This document shows positions 683-22,660 of a stretch of DNA of 64,000 nucleotides, piece by piece (position 1 is the first letter of the stretch; each line of letters starts with the position of its first letter). Both the position numbers and the translations under genes were made by a program. The DNA is from Escherichia coli (GTDB lineage Bacteria; Pseudomonadota; Gammaproteobacteria; Enterobacterales; Enterobacteriaceae): the NCBI RefSeq assembly GCF_003334765.1, contig NZ_QOWT01000010.1, one strand, 5' to 3'. Below the pieces are notes generated by a model that was given only the letters and a program-made list of their open reading frames with translations, was not told the origin of the DNA and did not search any database.

Positions 683-2305
683 TTACAGTTTCGGACCAGC
701 CGCTACCAGCGCGGCACCCGCAGGGGTGTCGGTGTATTTATCGAAGTTGTCGATAAACAGTTTCGCCAGGGTTTCGGCTTTTTCCTGCCACTGTTCCGGA
801 GAAGCGTAGGTGTTACGCGGATCGAGAATCTTCGTGTCTACGCCCGGCAGTTCGGTTGGGATCGCCAGGTTAAACATCGGCAGAGTGAAGGTTTCTGCAT
901 TATCCAGCGAACCGTTGAGGATGGCGTCGATAATGGCGCGGGTATCTTTAATCGAGATACGTTTGCCAGTGCCGTTCCAGCCAGTGTTAACCAGATAAGC
1001 CTGCGCGCCCGCCGCCTGCATACGTTTCACCAGCACTTCTGCGTACTGAGTCGGGTGCAGCGACAGGAATGCCGCGCCGAAGCAAGCGGAGAAGGTTGGC
1101 GTCGGTTCGGTGATGCCACGCTCAGTACCGGCCAGTTTGGCGGTGAAGCCAGAGAGGAAGTGATACTGGGTTTGATCGGCAGTCAGGCGAGAAACCGGCG
1201 GCAACACGCCGAAAGCATCAGCAGTCAGGAAGATAACCTTAGTCGCGTGGCCCGCTTTGGAAACCGGCTTAACAATGTTATCGATGTGATAGATCGGATA
1301 AGAAACGCGGGTGTTCTCGGTTTTTGAACCATCATCAAAGTCGATAGTGCCATCTTCACGCACGGTGACGTTTTCCAGCAACGCATCACGACGGATAGCG
1401 TTGTAGATTTCAGGTTCCGCTTCTTTCGACAGCTTGATAGTTTTTGCGTAGCAGCCGCCTTCGAAGTTAAACACGCCGTCATCGTCCCAGCCGTGTTCGT
1501 CATCGCCAATCAGGCGACGTTTCGGGTCGGTGGAAAGGGTGGTTTTACCGGTGCCGGAAAGGCCGAAGAACACCGCAACATCGCCTTTCTCACCAACGTT
1601 GGCGGAGCAGTGCATAGAAGCGATACCTTTCAGCGGCAGCAGGTAGTTCATCATCGAGAACATCCCTTTCTTCATTTCGCCGCCGTACCAGGTGCCGCCA
1701 ATCAGCTGCATGCGCTCGGTCAGGTTAAACGCCACGAAGTTTTCGGAGTTGAGACCCTGTTCTTTCCACTGCGGGTTAGTGCACTTCGCGCCGTTCATAA
1801 CGATAAAGTCTGGTTTGAAACCTGCCAGTTCTTCATCGCTCGGGCGAATAAACATGTTTTTGACAAAATGCGCCTGCCAGGCCACTTCGGTGATGAAACG
1901 GACGGAAAGACGAGTATCCGGGTTCGCACCACAGAAAGCGTCGACAACGAACAGACGTTTGCCGGAAAGCTGCCTGGTCACCAGGCCTTTCAGATGCTGC
2001 CAGGTTTCCGGAGAGAGAGGTTTGTTGTCGTTCTTACCTTTGCCTTTGTCTGCCCACCAGAAAGTATCGCGAGTGGTATCGTCACGGACGATATACTTAT
2101 CTTTTGGTGAACGACCGGTGAAGATCCCGGTATCGACGGCAACGGCACCCAGATTAGTTAACACCCCGCGCTCATAACCTGTCAGGCTCGGATCGAGCTC
2201 TTCCTGATACAGCAGGTCGTAGCTTGGGTTGTAAACGATATCATGTACGTCACTGATACCATAAGCCTCGAGTTCTTGCGGGGTCAAACCATTGTTAACG
2301 CGCAT
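683..2305 (-). CDS. pckA: Phosphoenolpyruvate carboxykinase (ATP)
   Basis: ORF track gives 563 aa; trimmed to internal ATG ([10 protein letters not shown]...) for 540 aa; P-loop GLSGTGKTT present. Confidence 0.93.
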
Positions 2306-2683
2306 TTCACTGCTCCTTAGCCAATATGTATTGCCTGAATAGTAAAGTCTTTTTGGGGGTGTTAACCGCGACAAGGCTCATAGATTTACGTATCTGGAGA
2401 AATTCATATTTGACAAAAAACTCCGTGATTCCTGTCACGAAACGGTTGCTATTATCGCAGAAATAGCATTTTAGGTGTGGAAAATGTTCTCAAAAGGTTA
2501 AATCTTGGTTTATATGGCGGGAATATTGTGAGTGGAATCGCATTCCTGAATGAAATTGATGCAAATTCAACCGGTAAAGTATCGATTCACCACGCTAACT
2601 TTTTTTGATTATTTTCTGAAAAAAGCAAAATACTACTGCCCGGATGCGATAATTAACCCACCTTTTGATTCTGGATAACCAAC

Positions 2684-4408
2684 ATGGATAACGTTGAACT
2701 TTCACCCGCAACACGCTGGGGGATGATTGCTACCGGATTACTTCAGGGTCTGGTTTGCTACCTGCTGATCGCCTGGCTTTCCGGAAAAAATCACAGTTGG
2801 ATTGTTTATGGCGTGCCTGCGACCGTCGCGTTTTCATCCGTTTTACTCTTCTCCGTGATCTCTTTTAAACAGAAGCGCCTTTGGGGATGGCTGGCGCTAG
2901 TGTTTATTGCCACGCTGGGGATGAGCGGCTGGCTGAAGTGGCAAACTGATGGCATGAACCCCTGGAGAGCTGAAAAGGCGCTTTGGGATTTTGGTTGCTA
3001 TCTGCTGTTGATGGCAATGTTGTTGCTACCGTGGATACAACAAAGCCTTCGCATCCGCAATGACAGTAGCCGCTATCGCTATTTTTACCAGTCAGTATGG
3101 CATAACGTACTTATATTACTGGTGATTTTTCTCGCCAATGGCTTGACGTGGCTGGTGCTTTTACTGTGGAGTGAGTTGTTTAAACTTGTTGGCATCACGT
3201 TTTTCAATACGCTCTTTTTTGCAACCGACTGGTTTATTTATCTCACGTTAGGTCTGGTTACCGCGCTGGCGGTGATCCTCGCGCGAACACAGTCACGTTT
3301 AATCGACTCTATTCAAAAGTTGTTCACGTTAATCGCCACGGGGTTGCTGCCGTTAGTATCATTGCTAACCCTGATGTTTATCATCACCCTGCCGTTTACG
3401 GGCCTGAGCGCGATTTCTCGCCACATCTCCGCCGCCGGGTTGCTGTTGACGCTGGCCTTTTTGCAATTGATCTTAATGGCTATTGTCCGCGATCCGCAAA
3501 AAGCGTCACTTCCCTGGACAGGGCCGTTGCGTTGCCTGATTAAAACCGCTTTGCTGGTTGCTCCGCTGTATGTGTTCGTCGCCGCCTGGGCGTTATGGCT
3601 GCGGGTCGCTCAGTACGGCTGGACTGTCGACCGCTTGCAGGGCGTGCTGGCGGTGCTGGTGTTACTGGTGTGGTCGCTGGGGTATTTTGTCAGCATCGTC
3701 TGGCGTAAAGGGCAAAATCCCGTTGTTCTTCAGGGCAAAGTGAACCTTGCGGTTTCGTTATTGGTGTTGGTGATACTGGTGCTTCTTAATTCGCCGGTGC
3801 TGGACAGTATGCGCATTAGCGTGAACAGCCATATGGCGCGTTATCAGAGCGGCAAAAACACGTCAGACCAGGTAACTATCTACATGCTCGAGCAGAGCGG
3901 TCGCTATGGACGTGCTGCGCTTGAGTCGCTGAAAAGCGATGCCGGGTTTATGAAAGACCCGAAACGCGCGCGGGATCTGCTGATGGCGTTAGATGGAGAG
4001 CAACATCTTCAGCAACAGGTATCGGAAAAAGTATTAGCCGATAATGTGTTAATTGCCCCTGGTTCTGTTAAACCTGATGCGACATTCTGGTCGGCCTTAA
4101 TCCAGGATCGCTATAACGTGATGACCTGTATTGAAAAAGACGCCTGCGTCCTGGTCGAGCAAGATCTGAATAGTGATGGTCAGGCGGAGCGGATCCTGTT
4201 TGCTTTTAATGATGACAGAGTCATTGTCTATGGCTTTGACTCAGACAGAAAAGAATGGGACGCGCTTGATATGAGTTTACTTCCGAACGAAATAACGAAA
4301 GAAAAATTACTCACAGCTGCGAAGGATGGAAAACTGGGGACGAAGCCTAAAGCGTGGCGCGATCTTGTAGTGGATGGTGAAAGGCTGAATGTGAATCTGA
4401 ATGAGTGA
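2684..4408 (+). CDS. yhgE: Inner membrane protein of unknown function, many predicted TM helices
   Basis: 574 aa ORF, strongly hydrophobic N-terminal two thirds; recognised as YhgE. Confidence 0.85.
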
Positions 4409-9699: not shown

Positions 9700-12252
9700 T
9701 CAGAACAATTCCTGTGCCTCGCCATTATCGATAATGGTCGTTCCCACCTCGTGCACTGCCTGTTGTGTCGGCTGCGTACCTTCGATGAAATACTCTTCGC
9801 GGCTGTTGCCACCATTAGCTAACTGCCCGGTGCTGCGATCGATATTCACCGTCACAATACCCGGTGGCGGCGTCAGCGGCTGCTCCGGCACACCTTCAAG
9901 AACGGCTTTCATATAAGCGTCCCATGCAGGCTGGGCACTCTTGGCACCGCCTTCGTAACCTGAGATCTGATCTTTAATCGCTCCGGAAGCCGTTGTATGA
10001 CCGAGATTACGACGGTGATCATCAAAGCCAATCCAGACCGAGGTCACAACGCCCGGACCGTAACCCGAGAACCACGCATCTTTCGAACTGTTAGTGGTCC
10101 CGGTTTTCCCGCCGATATCGCGACGCTGCAAATCACGACCTGCACGCCAGCCAGTACCCTGCCAGCCTGGCTCACCAAAGATATTGGTGTTCAAAGCACT
10201 CTTAATCAGGAATGCCAGCGGAGTGTTGATGACGTGCGGTGCGTACTCCTGCGCGCCAGTCTTCGCCACTAACGCCTGATTTGCCTGCTCCAGCTGCGGC
10301 ATTGGTACAGAAACATTCTGCTGCTCGCGGGAGATAGCGACATCTTCAACATCGTTATTTTCCAGCACGTTCGATTTCTGCGTATCACCGTAAATCACCG
10401 GAATATCGCATTCCGGGCAGGCTACTTTCGGTTTCGCTTCGAAAATCACGCCGCCCTGATCGTTTTCAATTTTGCTGATAAACCACGGGTCCACCAGGAA
10501 GCCGCCGTTCGCCATGACCGCGTAGCCGCGCGCCACCTGCATTGGGGTGAAGGACGCTGAACCCAGCGCCAGCGATTCGGTGTGGACAATGTTTTGTGCC
10601 GGGAAGCCGAAGCGTTGCAGATATTCTGCAGCGTAGTCGACGCCCATCGCCCGCATTGCGCGTACCATCACCACGTTTTTCGACTGACCCAGCCCCTGAC
10701 GTAAGCGAATTGGACCAGCATACTGCGGTGGTGAGTTCTTCGGCTGCCAGTCAGAACCGGCACTTGCATCCCAGCGAGAAATTGGCACATCGTTCAACAT
10801 ACTTGCCAGCGTCAGACCTTTATCCATCGCCGCGGTGTAGAGGAACGGTTTGATGTTGGAACCCACCTGACGCAGTGCCTGGGTGGCGCGGTTAAACTTG
10901 CTCTGATTGAAATCAAAGCCACCGACCAGCGCCATAACGGCACCGTTTTGCGGATTGATCGACACCAGCGCCGAGTTCACTTCCGGCACTTGTGCCAGCC
11001 ACCATGCATCGCCAACCTGACGAACCCAGATTTGCTGACCCGTTTGCAGAACATCGGTCACTTTACGCGGCGTCGGTCCTTGCTGAGTATCCGAACGGTA
11101 AGGACGCGCCCAGCGAACGCCTTCCATACTCAATGCGACGGTCGACCCGTCCGCCAGCATCGCCGTCGCTTGCTGAGGATTGGCGCTGGTGACTGCGGCA
11201 GGCAGCAGCGGACCATAGGTTGGCAGCGCCTTCAGCGTATCGGTAATCTTGTTGTTATCCCACGCCGACTCGCCCACTTTCCACAGCACATTTGCCGGGC
11301 CGCGATAGCCGTGGCGCATGTCGTAGTCCAGCACGTTATTACGTACCGCCTGCTGCGCGGCCTGCTGCACTTTGCGGGTGATGGTGGTGTAAATGCGATA
11401 ACCGTCTTCATAGGCACTTTCGCCATAACGGTTATACATCTCCTGGCGCACCATTTCGCTCAGGTACGGCGCAGAGAAAGCAATCTCCGGCGCGTGATAG
11501 TTAGCGTTAATCGCCTCAGTGCGTGTCTGATCGAACTGTTGTTGGGTGATATACCCTTCATCCAGCATCCGCGACAGCACGACGTTACGCCGCGCGACGG
11601 CACGATCCATCGAGTAGAGCGGGTTGAAGGTGGAAGGCGCTTTCGGCAGCCCGGCTATCACCGCCATTTCGTTCAGCGTCAGTTGGTCGACCGTTTTTCC
11701 GAAATAGACTTGTGCCGCAGCACCGACACCATAGGCGCGGTAACCAAGGTAAATCTTGTTCAGATAAAGCTCGAGGATCTCGTCTTTCGTCAGCAGCTGT
11801 TCAATGCGAATCGCGAGGAAGACTTCCTTAATCTTACGCATCAGCGTGCGTTCTGGACTGAGGAAGAAGTTTCTCGCCAGCTGCTGGGTAATGGTACTTG
11901 CCCCTTGTGACGCGTGACCGGAGAACAGCGCCACGCTTGCTGCACGGAAGATCCCCACCGGGTCAACGCCGTGATGCTCGTAGAAGCGGCTGTCTTCTGT
12001 CGCGATAAAGGCTTTCACCATCTCCGGTGGGATTTGATCCAACGTAACCGGAATACGACGTTTCTCACCGTATTGAGCAATCAGCTCGCCATCGGCGCTG
12101 TAAATCTGCATCGGAATTTGCAGGCGAACATCTTTTAATGTCGCCACATCCGGCAGTTGTGGCTCGATGTAGCGGTATAGGCCATAAATCGAGCCTGCTC
12201 CCAGCAGAATGCAACAGACTGCAAGGATCAAAAAATACTTTACGAACTTCAC
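9700..12252 (-). CDS. mrcA: Penicillin-binding protein 1A (bifunctional glycosyltransferase/transpeptidase)
   Basis: ORF track 858 aa; trimmed to GTG start at 12252 (..KFVKYFLIL..) for 850 aa; glycosyltransferase motifs (EDSRFYEH) and transpeptidase SxxK region present. Confidence 0.9.
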   Translation of the reverse strand: MKFVKYFLILAVCCILLGAGSIYGLYRYIEPQLPDVATLKDVRLQIPMQIYSADGELIAQYGEKRRIPVTLDQIPPEMVKAFIATEDSRFYEHHGVDPVGIFRAASVALFSGHASQGASTITQQLARNFFLSPERTLMRKIKEVFLAIRIEQLLTKDEILELYLNKIYLGYRAYGVGAAAQVYFGKTVDQLTLNEMAVIAGLPKAPSTFNPLYSMDRAVARRNVVLSRMLDEGYITQQQFDQTRTEAINANYHAPEIAFSAPYLSEMVRQEMYNRYGESAYEDGYRIYTTITRKVQQAAQQAVRNNVLDYDMRHGYRGPANVLWKVGESAWDNNKITDTLKALPTYGPLLPAAVTSANPQQATAMLADGSTVALSMEGVRWARPYRSDTQQGPTPRKVTDVLQTGQQIWVRQVGDAWWLAQVPEVNSALVSINPQNGAVMALVGGFDFNQSKFNRATQALRQVGSNIKPFLYTAAMDKGLTLASMLNDVPISRWDASAGSDWQPKNSPPQYAGPIRLRQGLGQSKNVVMVRAMRAMGVDYAAEYLQRFGFPAQNIVHTESLALGSASFTPMQVARGYAVMANGGFLVDPWFISKIENDQGGVIFEAKPKVACPECDIPVIYGDTQKSNVLENNDVEDVAISREQQNVSVPMPQLEQANQALVAKTGAQEYAPHVINTPLAFLIKSALNTNIFGEPGWQGTGWRAGRDLQRRDIGGKTGTTNSSKDAWFSGYGPGVVTSVWIGFDDHRRNLGHTTASGAIKDQISGYEGGAKSAQPAWDAYMKAVLEGVPEQPLTPPPGIVTVNIDRSTGQLANGGNSREEYFIEGTQPTQQAVHEVGTTIIDNGEAQELF

Positions 12253-16058: not shown

Positions 16059-16580
16059 ATGGCAGAGAAACGCAATATCTTTCTGGTTGGGCCTATGGGT
16101 GCCGGAAAAAGCACTATTGGGCGCCAGTTAGCTCAACAACTCAATATGGAATTTTACGATTCCGATCAAGAGATTGAGAAACGAACCGGAGCTGATGTGG
16201 GCTGGGTTTTCGATTTAGAAGGCGAAGAAGGCTTCCGCGATCGCGAAGAAAAGGTCATCAATGAGTTGACCGAGAAACAGGGTATTGTGCTGGCTACTGG
16301 CGGCGGCTCTGTGAAATCCCGTGAAACGCGTAACCGTCTTTCCGCTCGTGGCGTTGTCGTTTATCTTGAAACGACCATCGAAAAGCAACTTGCACGCACG
16401 CAGCGTGATAAAAAACGCCCGTTGCTGCACGTTGAAACACCGCCGCGTGAAGTTCTGGAAGCGTTGGCCAATGAACGCAATCCGCTGTATGAAGAGATTG
16501 CCGACGTGACCATTCGTACTGATGATCAAAGCGCTAAAGTGGTTGCAAACCAGATTATTCACATGCTGGAAAGCAACTAA
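16059..16580 (+). CDS. aroK: Shikimate kinase I
   Basis: ORF track 240 aa with a long in-frame leader; trimmed to [19 protein letters not shown] (173 aa); Walker A present. Confidence 0.88.
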
Positions 16581-16636
16581 TTCTGGCTTTATATACACTC
16601 GTCTGCGGGTACAGTAATTAAGGTGGATGTCGCGTT

Positions 16637-17725
16637 ATGGAGAGGATTGTCGTTACTCTCGGGGAACGTAGTTACCCAATTACCATCGCATCTGGTTTGT
16701 TTAATGAACCAGCTTCATTCTTACCGCTGAAATCGGGCGAGCAGGTCATGTTGGTCACCAACGAAACCCTGGCTCCTCTGTATCTCGATAAGGTCCGCGG
16801 CGTACTTGAACAGGCGGGTGTTAACGTCGATAGCGTTATCCTCCCTGACGGCGAGCAGTATAAAAGCCTGGCTGTACTCGATACCGTCTTTACGGCGTTG
16901 TTACAAAAACCGCATGGTCGCGATACTACGCTGGTGGCGCTTGGCGGCGGCGTAGTGGGCGATCTGACCGGCTTCGCGGCGGCGAGTTATCAGCGCGGTG
17001 TCCGTTTCATTCAAGTCCCGACGACGTTACTGTCGCAGGTCGATTCCTCCGTTGGCGGCAAAACTGCGGTCAACCATCCCCTCGGTAAAAACATGATTGG
17101 CGCGTTCTACCAACCTGCTTCAGTGGTGGTGGATCTCGACTGTCTGAAAACGCTTCCCCCGCGTGAGTTAGCGTCGGGGCTGGCAGAAGTCATCAAATAC
17201 GGCATTATTCTTGACGGTGCGTTTTTTAACTGGCTGGAAGAGAATCTGGATGCGTTGTTGCGTCTGGACGGTCCGGCAATGGCGTACTGTATTCGCCGTT
17301 GTTGTGAACTGAAGGCAGAAGTTGTCGCCGCCGACGAGCGCGAAACCGGGTTACGTGCTTTACTGAATCTGGGACACACCTTTGGTCATGCCATTGAAGC
17401 TGAAATGGGGTATGGCAATTGGTTACATGGTGAAGCGGTCGCTGCGGGTATGGTGATGGCGGCGCGGACGTCGGAACGTCTCGGGCAGTTTAGTTCTGCC
17501 GAAACGCAGCGTATTATAACCCTGCTCAAGCGGGCTGGGTTACCGGTCAATGGGCCGCGCGAAATGTCCGCGCAGGCGTATTTACCGCATATGCTGCGTG
17601 ACAAGAAAGTCCTTGCGGGAGAGATGCGCTTAATTCTTCCGTTGGCAATTGGTAAGAGTGAAGTTCGCAGCGGCGTTTCGCACGAGCTTGTTCTTAACGC
17701 CATTGCCGATTGTCAATCAGCGTAA
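16637..17725 (+). CDS. aroB: 3-dehydroquinate synthase
   Basis: 362 aa; recognised AroB; NAD-binding glycine-rich segment GGGVVGD. Confidence 0.93.
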
Positions 17726-17816
17726 CAACAAGAAAGGTCAGGCCGCTTATCAAGCGGTCTATTAGCTTCAGGTTAATTGCAACGTGGTAAGCATTAACCT
17801 TTTAGTGGGGTGTTAA

Positions 17817-19103
17817 ATGGATGAATTCAAACCAGAAGACGAGCTGAAACCCGATCCCAGCGATCGTCGTACTGGTCGTTCTCGTCAATCTTCTGAACGT
17901 TCTGAGCGTACTGAACGTGGCGAACCGCAGATCAATTTTGATGATATTGAACTTGATGACACTGACGATCGCCGTCCGACTCGTGCGCAAAAAGAGCGCA
18001 ATGAGGAACCGGAAATCGAAGAAGAAATTGACGAATCCGAAGATGAAACCGTGGATGAAGAGCGCGTAGAGCGTCGTCCGCGTAAGCGCAAAAAAGCAGC
18101 CAGTAAACCCGCTTCTCGTCAGTATATGATGATGGGCGTCGGCATTCTGGTTCTACTGCTGTTGATCATCGGTATCGGTTCTGCGCTAAAAGCCCCCTCG
18201 ACCACTTCCAGCGATCAAACCGCGTCTGGCGAGAAGAGTATTGATCTTGCTGGCAATGCGACCGATCAGGCGAATGGCGTGCAGCCAGCGCCGGGAACCA
18301 CGTCTGCGGAAAATACTCAGCAGGATGTTTCTCTGCCACCGATCTCTTCTACGCCGACTCAAGGGCAAACCCCGGTGGCAACGGATGGTCAACAACGTGT
18401 TGAAGTGCAGGGTGACCTGAACAATGCGCTGACCCAGCCACAAAATCAGCAACAGCTGAACAATGTGGCGGTCAATTCCACGTTGCCGACTGAACCCGCA
18501 ACGGTTGCGCCTGTTCGCAATGGCAATGCATCGCGTGACACGGCGAAAACGCAAACCGCTGAACGTCCGTCCACTACGCGCCCAGCTCGTCAGCAGGCGG
18601 TGATTGAACCGAAAAAACCGCAAGCAACCGTGAAAACGGAGCCGAAGCCGGTAGCACAGACGCCGAAGCGTACTGAACCAGCTGCCCCTGTGGCGAGCAC
18701 GAAGGCACCGGCTGCGACTTCTACGCCAGCACCAAAAGAGACGGCGACTACGGCTCCAGTACAGACGGCATCCCCGGCGCAAACCACGGCAACACCCGCT
18801 GCTGGGGCGAAGACCGCAGGTAATGTTGGTTCGTTGAAATCGGCACCGTCCAGCCATTACACTCTGCAGCTGAGCAGTTCCTCTAACTACGACAACCTGA
18901 ACGGTTGGGCGAAGAAAGAGAATCTGAAAAACTACGTTGTCTATGAAACGACGCGTAATGGTCAGCCGTGGTATGTCCTGGTTTCTGGCGTGTACGCTTC
19001 GAAAGAAGAGGCGAAAAAAGCGGTATCTACATTGCCAGCAGATGTCCAGGCCAAAAACCCGTGGGCGAAACCGCTGCGTCAGGTACAGGCCGATCTGAAG
19101 TAA
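17817..19103 (+). CDS. damX: Cell division protein DamX (SPOR domain)
   Basis: 428 aa; acidic/basic N-terminus, single TM helix, long P/T/A/Q-rich linker, C-terminal SPOR-like domain. Confidence 0.9.
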
Positions 19104-19209
19104 TCAAGGTTATCTCCCGCAATGGTTTATCGTTGCGGGAGTTGCCTGAAGCGCTGGATGCTGTCGGAGCTTTCTCCACAGCCGGAGAAGGTGTAATTAG
19201 TTAGTCAGC

Positions 19210-20046
19210 ATGAAGAAAAATCGCGCTTTTTTGAAGTGGGCAGGGGGCAAGTATCCCCTGCTTGATGATATTAAACGGCATTTGCCCAAGGGCGAATGTC
19301 TGGTTGAGCCTTTTGTAGGTGCCGGGTCGGTGTTTCTCAACACCGACTTTTCTCGTTATATCCTTGCCGATATCAATAGCGACCTGATCAGTCTCTATAA
19401 CATTGTGAAGATGCGTACTGATGAGTACGTACAGGCCGCACGCGAGCTGTTTGTTCCCGAAACAAATTGCGCCGAGGTTTACTATCAGTTCCGCGAAGAG
19501 TTCAACAAAAGCCAGGATCCGTTCCGTCGGGCGGTACTGTTTTTATATTTGAACCGCTACGGTTACAACGGCCTGTGTCGTTACAATCTGCGCGGTGAGT
19601 TTAACGTGCCGTTCGGCCGCTACAAAAAACCCTATTTCCCGGAAGCAGAGTTGTATCACTTCGCTGAAAAAGCGCAGAATGCCTTTTTCTATTGTGAGTC
19701 TTACGCCGATAGCATGGCGCGCGCAGATGATGCATCCGTCGTCTATTGCGATCCGCCTTATGCACCGCTGTCTGCGACCGCCAACTTTACGGCGTATCAC
19801 ACAAACAGTTTTACGCTTGAACAACAAGCGCATCTGGCGGAGATCGCCGAAGGTCTGGTTGAGCGCCATATTCCAGTGCTGATCTCCAATCACGATACGA
19901 TGTTAACGCGTGAGTGGTATCAGCGCGCAAAATTGCATGTCGTCAAAGTTCGACGCAGTATAAGCAGCAACGGCGGCACACGTAAAAAGGTGGACGAACT
20001 GCTGGCTTTGTACAAACCAGGAGTCGTTTCACCCGCGAAAAAATAA
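19210..20046 (+). CDS. dam: DNA adenine methyltransferase (GATC)
   Basis: 278 aa; catalytic DPPY motif ([11 protein letters not shown]) and N-terminal SAM-binding FxGxG (EPFVGAGSV). Confidence 0.95.
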
Positions 20047-22615: not shown

Positions 22616-22636
22616 TTTGCTTTTATCATCACTCTG

Positions 22637-22660
22637 AAACCGGGGAAACCCGGTTTTTTT
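22637..22660 (+). terminator. Intrinsic terminator ending the aroK-trpS transcription unit
   Basis: Hairpin aaaccgggg-aaa-ccccggttt followed by a run of 7 T. Confidence 0.65.

Follow-up and report, generated by a model that had tools for sequence, protein, structure and literature searches.

DamX of Escherichia coli: a bitopic SPOR protein with low-complexity segments, encoded next to dam

DamX is a well-studied, non-essential cell-division protein of the inner membrane. Its SPOR domain binds "denuded" glycan strands at the septum, that is, strands from which amidases have stripped the peptides (bioRxiv 10.1101/2022.07.01.498525, PMC6895207), and this domain is required for both the localisation and the function of the protein (bioRxiv 10.1101/2022.07.01.498525). 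DamX co-purifies with PBP1B and mildly stimulates its glycosyltransferase and transpeptidase activities; a soluble form made without the transmembrane segment gives no stimulation of PBP1B (PMC7642682). Loss of damX leads to deoxycholate sensitivity and aggravates the phenotype of a dedD mutant, and over-production of the protein blocks division (PMC7642682, bioRxiv 10.1101/2022.07.01.498525). In uropathogenic E. coli, the filamentation that accompanies infection needs DamX (PMC4981707). The authors of a comparison of SPOR proteins have proposed a structural role, in which peptidoglycan is tethered to the inner membrane (bioRxiv 10.1101/2022.07.01.498525). FtsN and DedD are other bitopic SPOR proteins of E. 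coli, and there are distinguishing characteristics. First, among the three proteins, both the cytoplasmic part and the linker are longest in DamX (PMC7642682). Second, DamX is non-essential, and an "E" domain has been described for FtsN alone (bioRxiv 10.1101/2022.07.01.498525).

The locus considered here lies in a 64,000-nucleotide stretch of E. coli DNA (contig NZ_QOWT01000010.1 of RefSeq assembly GCF_003334765.1), referred to below as the window; its features are collected in Table 1. The open reading frame at exactly 17817-19103, which opens with ATG and closes with TAA, is damX of Escherichia coli. Its product matches the NCBIfam equivalog "cell division protein DamX" (NF008153) at 848.8 bits (the curated cutoff is 256 bits), with residues 1-428 aligned to profile positions 1-424 of 424. 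DamX was the sole NCBIfam family matched at E <= 0.001, so no family model of FtsN or DedD was matched, and the top representative protein cluster is named DamX at 99-100% identity. Pfam matches to PBP1_TM (E = 0.034), DUF7336 and Piezo_TM1-24 were not significant and were discarded. At the DNA level, several complete E. coli genomes carry the region 17700-19250 at 100% identity. When a match was counted at a coverage of at least 80%, the region was found in all 5,426 of the 5,426 E. coli genomes searched, where it is always annotated as damX and flanked by aroB and dam, at 95-100% DNA identity and with few substitutions between strains. In E. coli ML35 the gene is annotated at identical coordinates, the window being colinear with that genome, coordinate by coordinate, from envZ to tuf. 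The matches to 17700-19250 in E. coli genomes came to 5,429 places, one of them on a plasmid, and at least one genome carries two copies of the region. DamX of E. coli K-12 (b3388, NF008153, 2LFV) is the same protein, with the same gene neighbours as b3388 has in MG1655, and the comparison gives no substantial difference: strains vary by a few substitutions, and now and then an in-frame deletion affects the linker or the acidic run. The architecture, structure, localisation mechanism and operon context of DamX have all been published already, and what the locus yields is in this respect correct but ordinary.

Table 1. Features of the damX locus, in coordinates of the window
Feature	Coordinates	Strand	Basis or remark
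aroK and aroB, upstream in the same operon	16059..17725	+	annotation; aroB is TIGR01357, 409.3 bits
damX coding sequence	17817..19103	+	428 codons plus TAA; open reading frame list, NCBIfam NF008153, ML35 annotation
N-terminal cytoplasmic motif, residues 1-18	17817..17870	+	alignment of 28 diverse relatives
charged low-complexity segment, about residues 29-85	17901..18071	+	pLDDT mostly <50; holds the acidic part of the charged run at residues 63-93
basic juxtamembrane stretch, residues 86-100	18072..18116	+	invariant in Escherichia and Salmonella; positive-inside charge
single transmembrane helix, residues 101-124	18117..18188	+	Kyte-Doolittle, AlphaFold2
proximal periplasmic region, residues 125-235	18189..18521	+	low complexity with conserved islands; pLDDT <50
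distal periplasmic linker, residues 236-337	18522..18827	+	P/T/A/K-rich
SPOR peptidoglycan-binding domain, residues 338-428	18828..19100	+	PF05036, 2LFV, AlphaFold2
damX-dam spacer, 106 nt	19104..19209	+	variable hairpin 19114-19141, then conserved dam leader 19148-19209
dam (DNA adenine methyltransferase), next gene	19210..20046	+	NF008152, 582.9 bits against a cutoff of 441; annotation

A preliminary description of this DNA had drawn attention to the composition of the protein, calling the N-terminal ~100 residues almost entirely charged. The region is indeed charged, with 57% D, E, K or R in residues 1-100 (21 E, 16 R, 13 D and 7 K, for a net charge of -11), but "almost entirely" is an overstatement. 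The charged run that it quoted was found at residues 63-93, where 23 of the 31 residues are charged by hand count, and the ~200 residues rich in P, T, A and Q that it placed after the membrane helix correspond to residues 126-338, which are 55% P/T/A/Q. Among the 48 open reading frames of at least 200 amino acids in the window, DamX comes first on all three measures taken over 60 residues: the maximum charged fraction (0.63, runner-up 0.45), the maximum P/T/A/Q fraction (0.73, runner-up 0.47) and the minimum entropy (2.75 bits). The compositional bias is therefore far above the local background. A repeat array was ruled out as the source of the low complexity: repeat searches of damX gave just two minor repeats, a 9-nt unit in 3.1 copies at 17891-17918 (encoding SERSERTER) and a 12-nt chance pair, so the low complexity is compositional. 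An antisense open reading frame of 223 codons within damX, at 18186-18857 (-), has the second-lowest entropy in the window and looks like a by-product of compositional bias.

The preliminary description had also proposed a bitopic protein with a single transmembrane helix and a SPOR-type domain at its C-terminus, and these proposals are well supported. DamX has one Kyte-Doolittle segment above 1.6 (19-residue windows starting at 99-112, with a peak of 2.66 at 106-124), and AlphaFold2 places a helix at residues 101-124 with a block pLDDT of 83-89. The flanks of the helix differ in charge: there are nine K or R in residues 81-100 versus two in residues 121-140, and the helix is preceded by RRPRKRKK and followed by a near-neutral stretch. 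This positive-inside distribution indicates that the N-terminus is in the cytoplasm, in agreement with published work, where DamX is bitopic with a cytoplasmic N-terminus (bioRxiv 10.1101/2022.07.01.498525). At the other end of the protein, an HMM search matched the Pfam SPOR family (PF05036) at residues 345-418 with E = 3.7e-14, covering model positions 2-75 of 76. The sequence of residues 335-428 is the same as that of residues 13-106 of chain A in PDB entry 2LFV, in which the SPOR domain of DamX was solved by NMR. The AlphaFold2 model of this region (residues 337-428, pLDDT 94-96) has the order beta-alpha-beta-beta-alpha-beta followed by a C-terminal helix, with strands at residues 348-355, 373-380, 383-393 and 416-419 and helices at 358-367 and 396-403; as predicted, this is the RNP-like SPOR fold, in which two helices flank an antiparallel sheet. 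The residues to which septal localisation and glycan contact have been assigned in DamX, namely Q351, S354 and W416 on the face of the sheet and a basic patch formed by R380 and K418 (PMC6895207), are all present in the translation, and Q351, R380 and W416 are invariant across an alignment of 28 diverse relatives.

The remaining parts of the protein are modelled very differently. In the AlphaFold2 prediction, which was built on a 28-sequence alignment, residues 1-100 have block-mean pLDDT values of 41-58 and residues 125-336 values of 37-56 (mostly below 50), and neither region has any secondary structure. Judging from the indirect evidence of the low pLDDT (below 60), the lack of DSSP elements, the composition and the tolerance of indels, the cytoplasmic tail and the periplasmic linker of DamX look intrinsically disordered, as the preliminary description had suggested for the cytoplasmic region. 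For the linker this reading has a counterpart in the literature, where it is mostly unstructured (bioRxiv 10.1101/2022.07.01.498525). For the tail it is at odds with a published statement that the cytoplasmic part of DamX is "large and likely folded" (PMC7642682). If that statement held, the ~100-residue cytoplasmic part would be a folded domain and its charged runs would be stable helices, for example a charged single alpha-helix. The published remark is accompanied by helices drawn from a GOR secondary-structure prediction (PMC7642682), and the invariance of residues 1-28 and 82-100 between Escherichia and Salmonella also speaks for a fold. Against it, the model has neither helix nor strand before residue 101, more than half of the tail is charged and a hydrophobic core is lacking, most of the tail is missing from relatives with short tails, and a natural deletion of 22 residues occurs. 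A folded tail is thus improbable in our judgement, and the published remark on the folded cytoplasmic part is put in question.

How the disordered-looking regions vary among relatives bears on what they may do. A search of 1.84 billion cluster representatives returned 3,538 relatives of DamX at E <= 0.001 and 77 at E <= 1e-30, and those with a detectable transmembrane segment carry exactly one. The relatives include two classes of cytoplasmic tail: a long-tail class with 78-94 residues ahead of the helix, most of them net acidic as in E. coli DamX, and a short-tail class with a tail of about 28-42 residues and a net charge near 0. Short-tail orthologues, such as those of Edwardsiella hoshinae and Budvicia diplopodorum, share the MDEFKPE..KPDxSDR motif, the transmembrane helix, the periplasmic islands and the SPOR domain with E. 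coli DamX but lack its acidic low-complexity segment. The N-terminal motif (~17 residues) is common to both tail classes: among 28 relatives R17 never varies, and conservation of D13 and D16 is at least 90%. The pattern D.[SDNRH][DE]R occurs within the first 45 residues in 55 of 72 cluster representatives with the DamX architecture, compared with 3.5% of shuffled tails. The segment at about residues 29-85 is missing in the short-tail class and poorly conserved in the long-tail class, and residues 60-81 (17994-18059) are deleted in a Shigella sonnei protein cluster. By the evidence of these alignments, the acidic run quoted in the preliminary description is apparently a clade-specific segment and not a conserved element of the tail. 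Closer to the membrane, residues 86-100 show no change among Escherichia and Salmonella, and across the 28 relatives the juxtamembrane S100 is invariant, Q102 is at least 90% conserved and several positions of the transmembrane helix are conserved.

The periplasmic side is divided in a similar way. The proximal region has islands that occur in both tail classes: EKxIDLS (with L144 invariant), PPISSTPTQ, QRVExxGD..AL and STLPTxPAT (with P224 invariant). Both length and sequence are hypervariable across residues 236-337, which are gapped and unalignable among the 28 relatives. In E. coli, E. albertii and Shigella sonnei, in-frame deletions give rise to protein clusters that span 389-433 amino acids, although many of the deletion-bearing clusters are single-member and some are possibly assembly errors. 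The deletions fall mostly at about residues 288-326 (18680-18800), with one at residues 201-213 and the one at residues 60-81. Given the indels and the in-frame deletions that occur in nature, the two stretches of most extreme low complexity appear to behave as length-tolerant spacers, and the functional information probably sits elsewhere. The conserved islands in the proximal periplasmic region show that part of the "linker" is more than a passive tether.

These observations can be placed in the published mechanism, in which binding of the SPOR domain to denuded septal glycan concentrates DamX at the constriction site. The ~210-residue P/T/A/Q region would be a flexible tether between the inner membrane and the SPOR domain, allowing the domain to reach the peptidoglycan, and its distal half would act as a length-tolerant spacer. 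On the cytoplasmic side, the functional element of the tail would consist of the 17-residue N-terminal motif, a putative short linear interaction motif, together with the basic juxtamembrane stretch; the acidic low-complexity run would be a dispensable, lineage-specific spacer. By analogy with the tail of FtsN, which docks on FtsA, the N-terminal 17-residue peptide may dock a cytoplasmic component of the divisome. The gene for PBP1A, mrcA, lies at 9700-12252 (-), about 5.5 kb upstream of damX, with hofMNOPQ and aroKB between them. This proximity is probably coincidental, since the literature ties DamX to PBP1B and not to PBP1A (PMC7642682).

The preliminary description had further regarded damX as co-transcribed with dam and had called the pairing of a division factor with a DNA methylase unusual. 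One published report gives the operon as aroK-aroB-damX-dam-rpe-gph-trpS (PMC4981707, citing Lobner-Olesen 1992 and Lyngstadaas 1995), places further dam promoters inside damX and calls the genes "functionally diverse" (PMC4981707). A consensus scan gave no terminator-like site in the 106-nt spacer between damX and dam; it did give one downstream of trpS (22636-22657), a hairpin with a T-run. The published operon and a spacer free of terminator-like sites are consistent with co-transcription of damX and dam. In all 80 species-level loci compared (the best 80 of 419; all Enterobacteriaceae, 77 complete and 3 cut by contig ends) the genes follow the order aroK-aroB-damX-dam-rpe, and two more divergent metagenomic contigs have the same damX neighbourhood. 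The pairing with dam is therefore textbook material rather than unusual: it is conserved and long documented and presents no new oddity.

Some more distant arrangements were seen in the same searches. Distant SPOR matches were rejected as DamX orthologues because they have other architectures (an AAA ATPase with SPOR, or Sel1 with SPOR). On two contigs (L090, 567-5355, and L088, 98-2640) the distant SPOR protein has an AAA ATPase N-terminal region, and a small WGR-domain gene lies ahead of it; on L090 this unit lies downstream of aroB, and the available DNA has no called dam. A metagenomic contig that carries a divergent damX (L005, protein P0158) encodes a 531-amino-acid product downstream, at 1491-3086, with matches to both MethyltransfD12 (Dam) and Ribul_P_3_epim (Rpe). 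This product is either a dam-rpe fusion or an artefact of gene calling or a frameshift. On the same contig, minE, minD and minC come after trpS.

The spacer between damX and dam has features of its own. Its RNA fold has a predicted energy of -47.6 kcal/mol (z = -5.44), and an Rfam gathering scan of the whole window, the structured spacer included, returned no family, so the spacer is not a described RNA. It has two parts. The 5' module, as compared across the best 80 of 419 loci, ranges from 0 to about 120 nt and carries GC-rich hairpins that differ by genus; no U-tract follows these hairpins in the spacers of the same set. In Escherichia the module has an 11-bp hairpin (19114-19141); in Salmonella arizonae the spacer reaches 180 nt and holds several hairpins. 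Unrelated GC-rich hairpins occur in Kluyvera, Citrobacter and others, whereas in many Enterobacter the spacer is 67 nt long and lacks a hairpin of this kind. The 3' part is a 62-nt dam leader, which in 74 non-Escherichia loci (among the best 80 of 419) has a mean identity to E. coli of 91%, compared with 73% for the coding DNA of dam and 49% for its third-codon positions in the same loci. An alternative-frame open reading frame of 78 codons, at 18968-19204 (+), overlaps the 3' end of damX, spans the whole spacer and terminates 5 nt short of the dam ATG; it looks like a by-product of compositional bias.

Two elements within the leader could be relevant to dam translation. The first is a hairpin: no Shine-Dalgarno-like run was found at normal spacing from the dam ATG (19210), and the sole Shine-Dalgarno-like run, GGAGAAGG, lies 22-29 nt upstream of it, in the 3' arm of a predicted hairpin at 19169-19192. 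RNAalifold predicted the hairpin from 45 unique dam leaders, with compensatory changes in 0 of 13 pairs. The second is a candidate leader open reading frame of 12 codons, MLSELSPQPEKV, at 19158-19196 (+), whose end lies 13 nt upstream of the dam ATG. Of 45 unique leaders, 44 have ATG, TTG or GTG at its start position, and in 43 of the 45 it terminates no more than 13 nt from the dam ATG, overlaps that codon or is fused to it in frame; its frame is shifted by indels between genera, and the peptide is not conserved. The candidate has no entry in the MG1655 annotation, and literature searches on the leader peptide sequence and on dam translational coupling found nothing. Translation of dam may depend on the 62-nt leader, either through a hairpin that sequesters GGAGAAGG or through the 12-codon leader open reading frame.

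The constancy of gene order and the conservation of the leader above that of dam itself could also be taken to mean that the adjacency of damX and dam reflects a coupling of division and DNA methylation (for example, co-ordinated dosage) and not the historical structure of the operon. The operon, however, also holds genes for aromatic amino-acid, pentose-phosphate and phosphoglycolate metabolism and for a tRNA ligase; deletion of damX left dam expression unchanged, and the phenotypes of damX are separable from dam (PMC4981707). The arrangement on L090, with a distant SPOR gene downstream of aroB and no dam called, adds that the SPOR-aroB linkage may be the older one: a SPOR gene beside aroB may predate the pairing with dam. 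Coupling is thus quite improbable as the reason for the adjacency, and the historical structure of the operon is the preferred reading.

The weakest alternative is that a second gene, out of frame, is hidden in the charged low-complexity stretch and is what makes that stretch matter. A PIRT-Seq study lists a nested candidate, "in-damX" (PMC12350097), whose tagging primers match 18017-18066, so that the tag sits just before a +1-frame TAG at 18067; by primer match the candidate is the +1-frame open reading frame 17848-18069 (+), inside the charged run, with an ATG at 17941 that would give 42 amino acids. In 79 species (among the best 80 of 419 loci) the +1 frame is open for a median of 66 codons versus 25 for the +2 frame. 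An open +1 frame here follows automatically from composition and is not evidence of coding, because a +1 stop (TAA, TAG or TGA) can arise only where the parent codon has T in its second position and so encodes a hydrophobic residue, and the charged region is without such codons. With detection by its authors in a single replicate (PMC12350097), and a main text that does not place "in-damX" among the three of five nested candidates with western blot detection, a hidden gene is highly improbable.

The explanation that almost certainly holds is that of a bitopic divisome protein, DamX, targeted through its SPOR domain, with the tether and spacer readings of its low-complexity regions and with no need for a functional link between DamX and Dam. 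A more ambitious joint proposal is that the tail is a disordered tether presenting an N-terminal docking motif and that, separately, the conserved 62-nt leader governs dam translation; taken as a whole it seems to us possible but doubtful. Dam dosage matters for replication timing, mismatch repair and epigenetic switches, and the very conserved, unannotated leader that precedes dam is flagged here. For the dissection of DamX itself, the analysis sets the N-terminal motif, the juxtamembrane and transmembrane segments, the periplasmic islands and the SPOR domain apart from the variable low-complexity filler.
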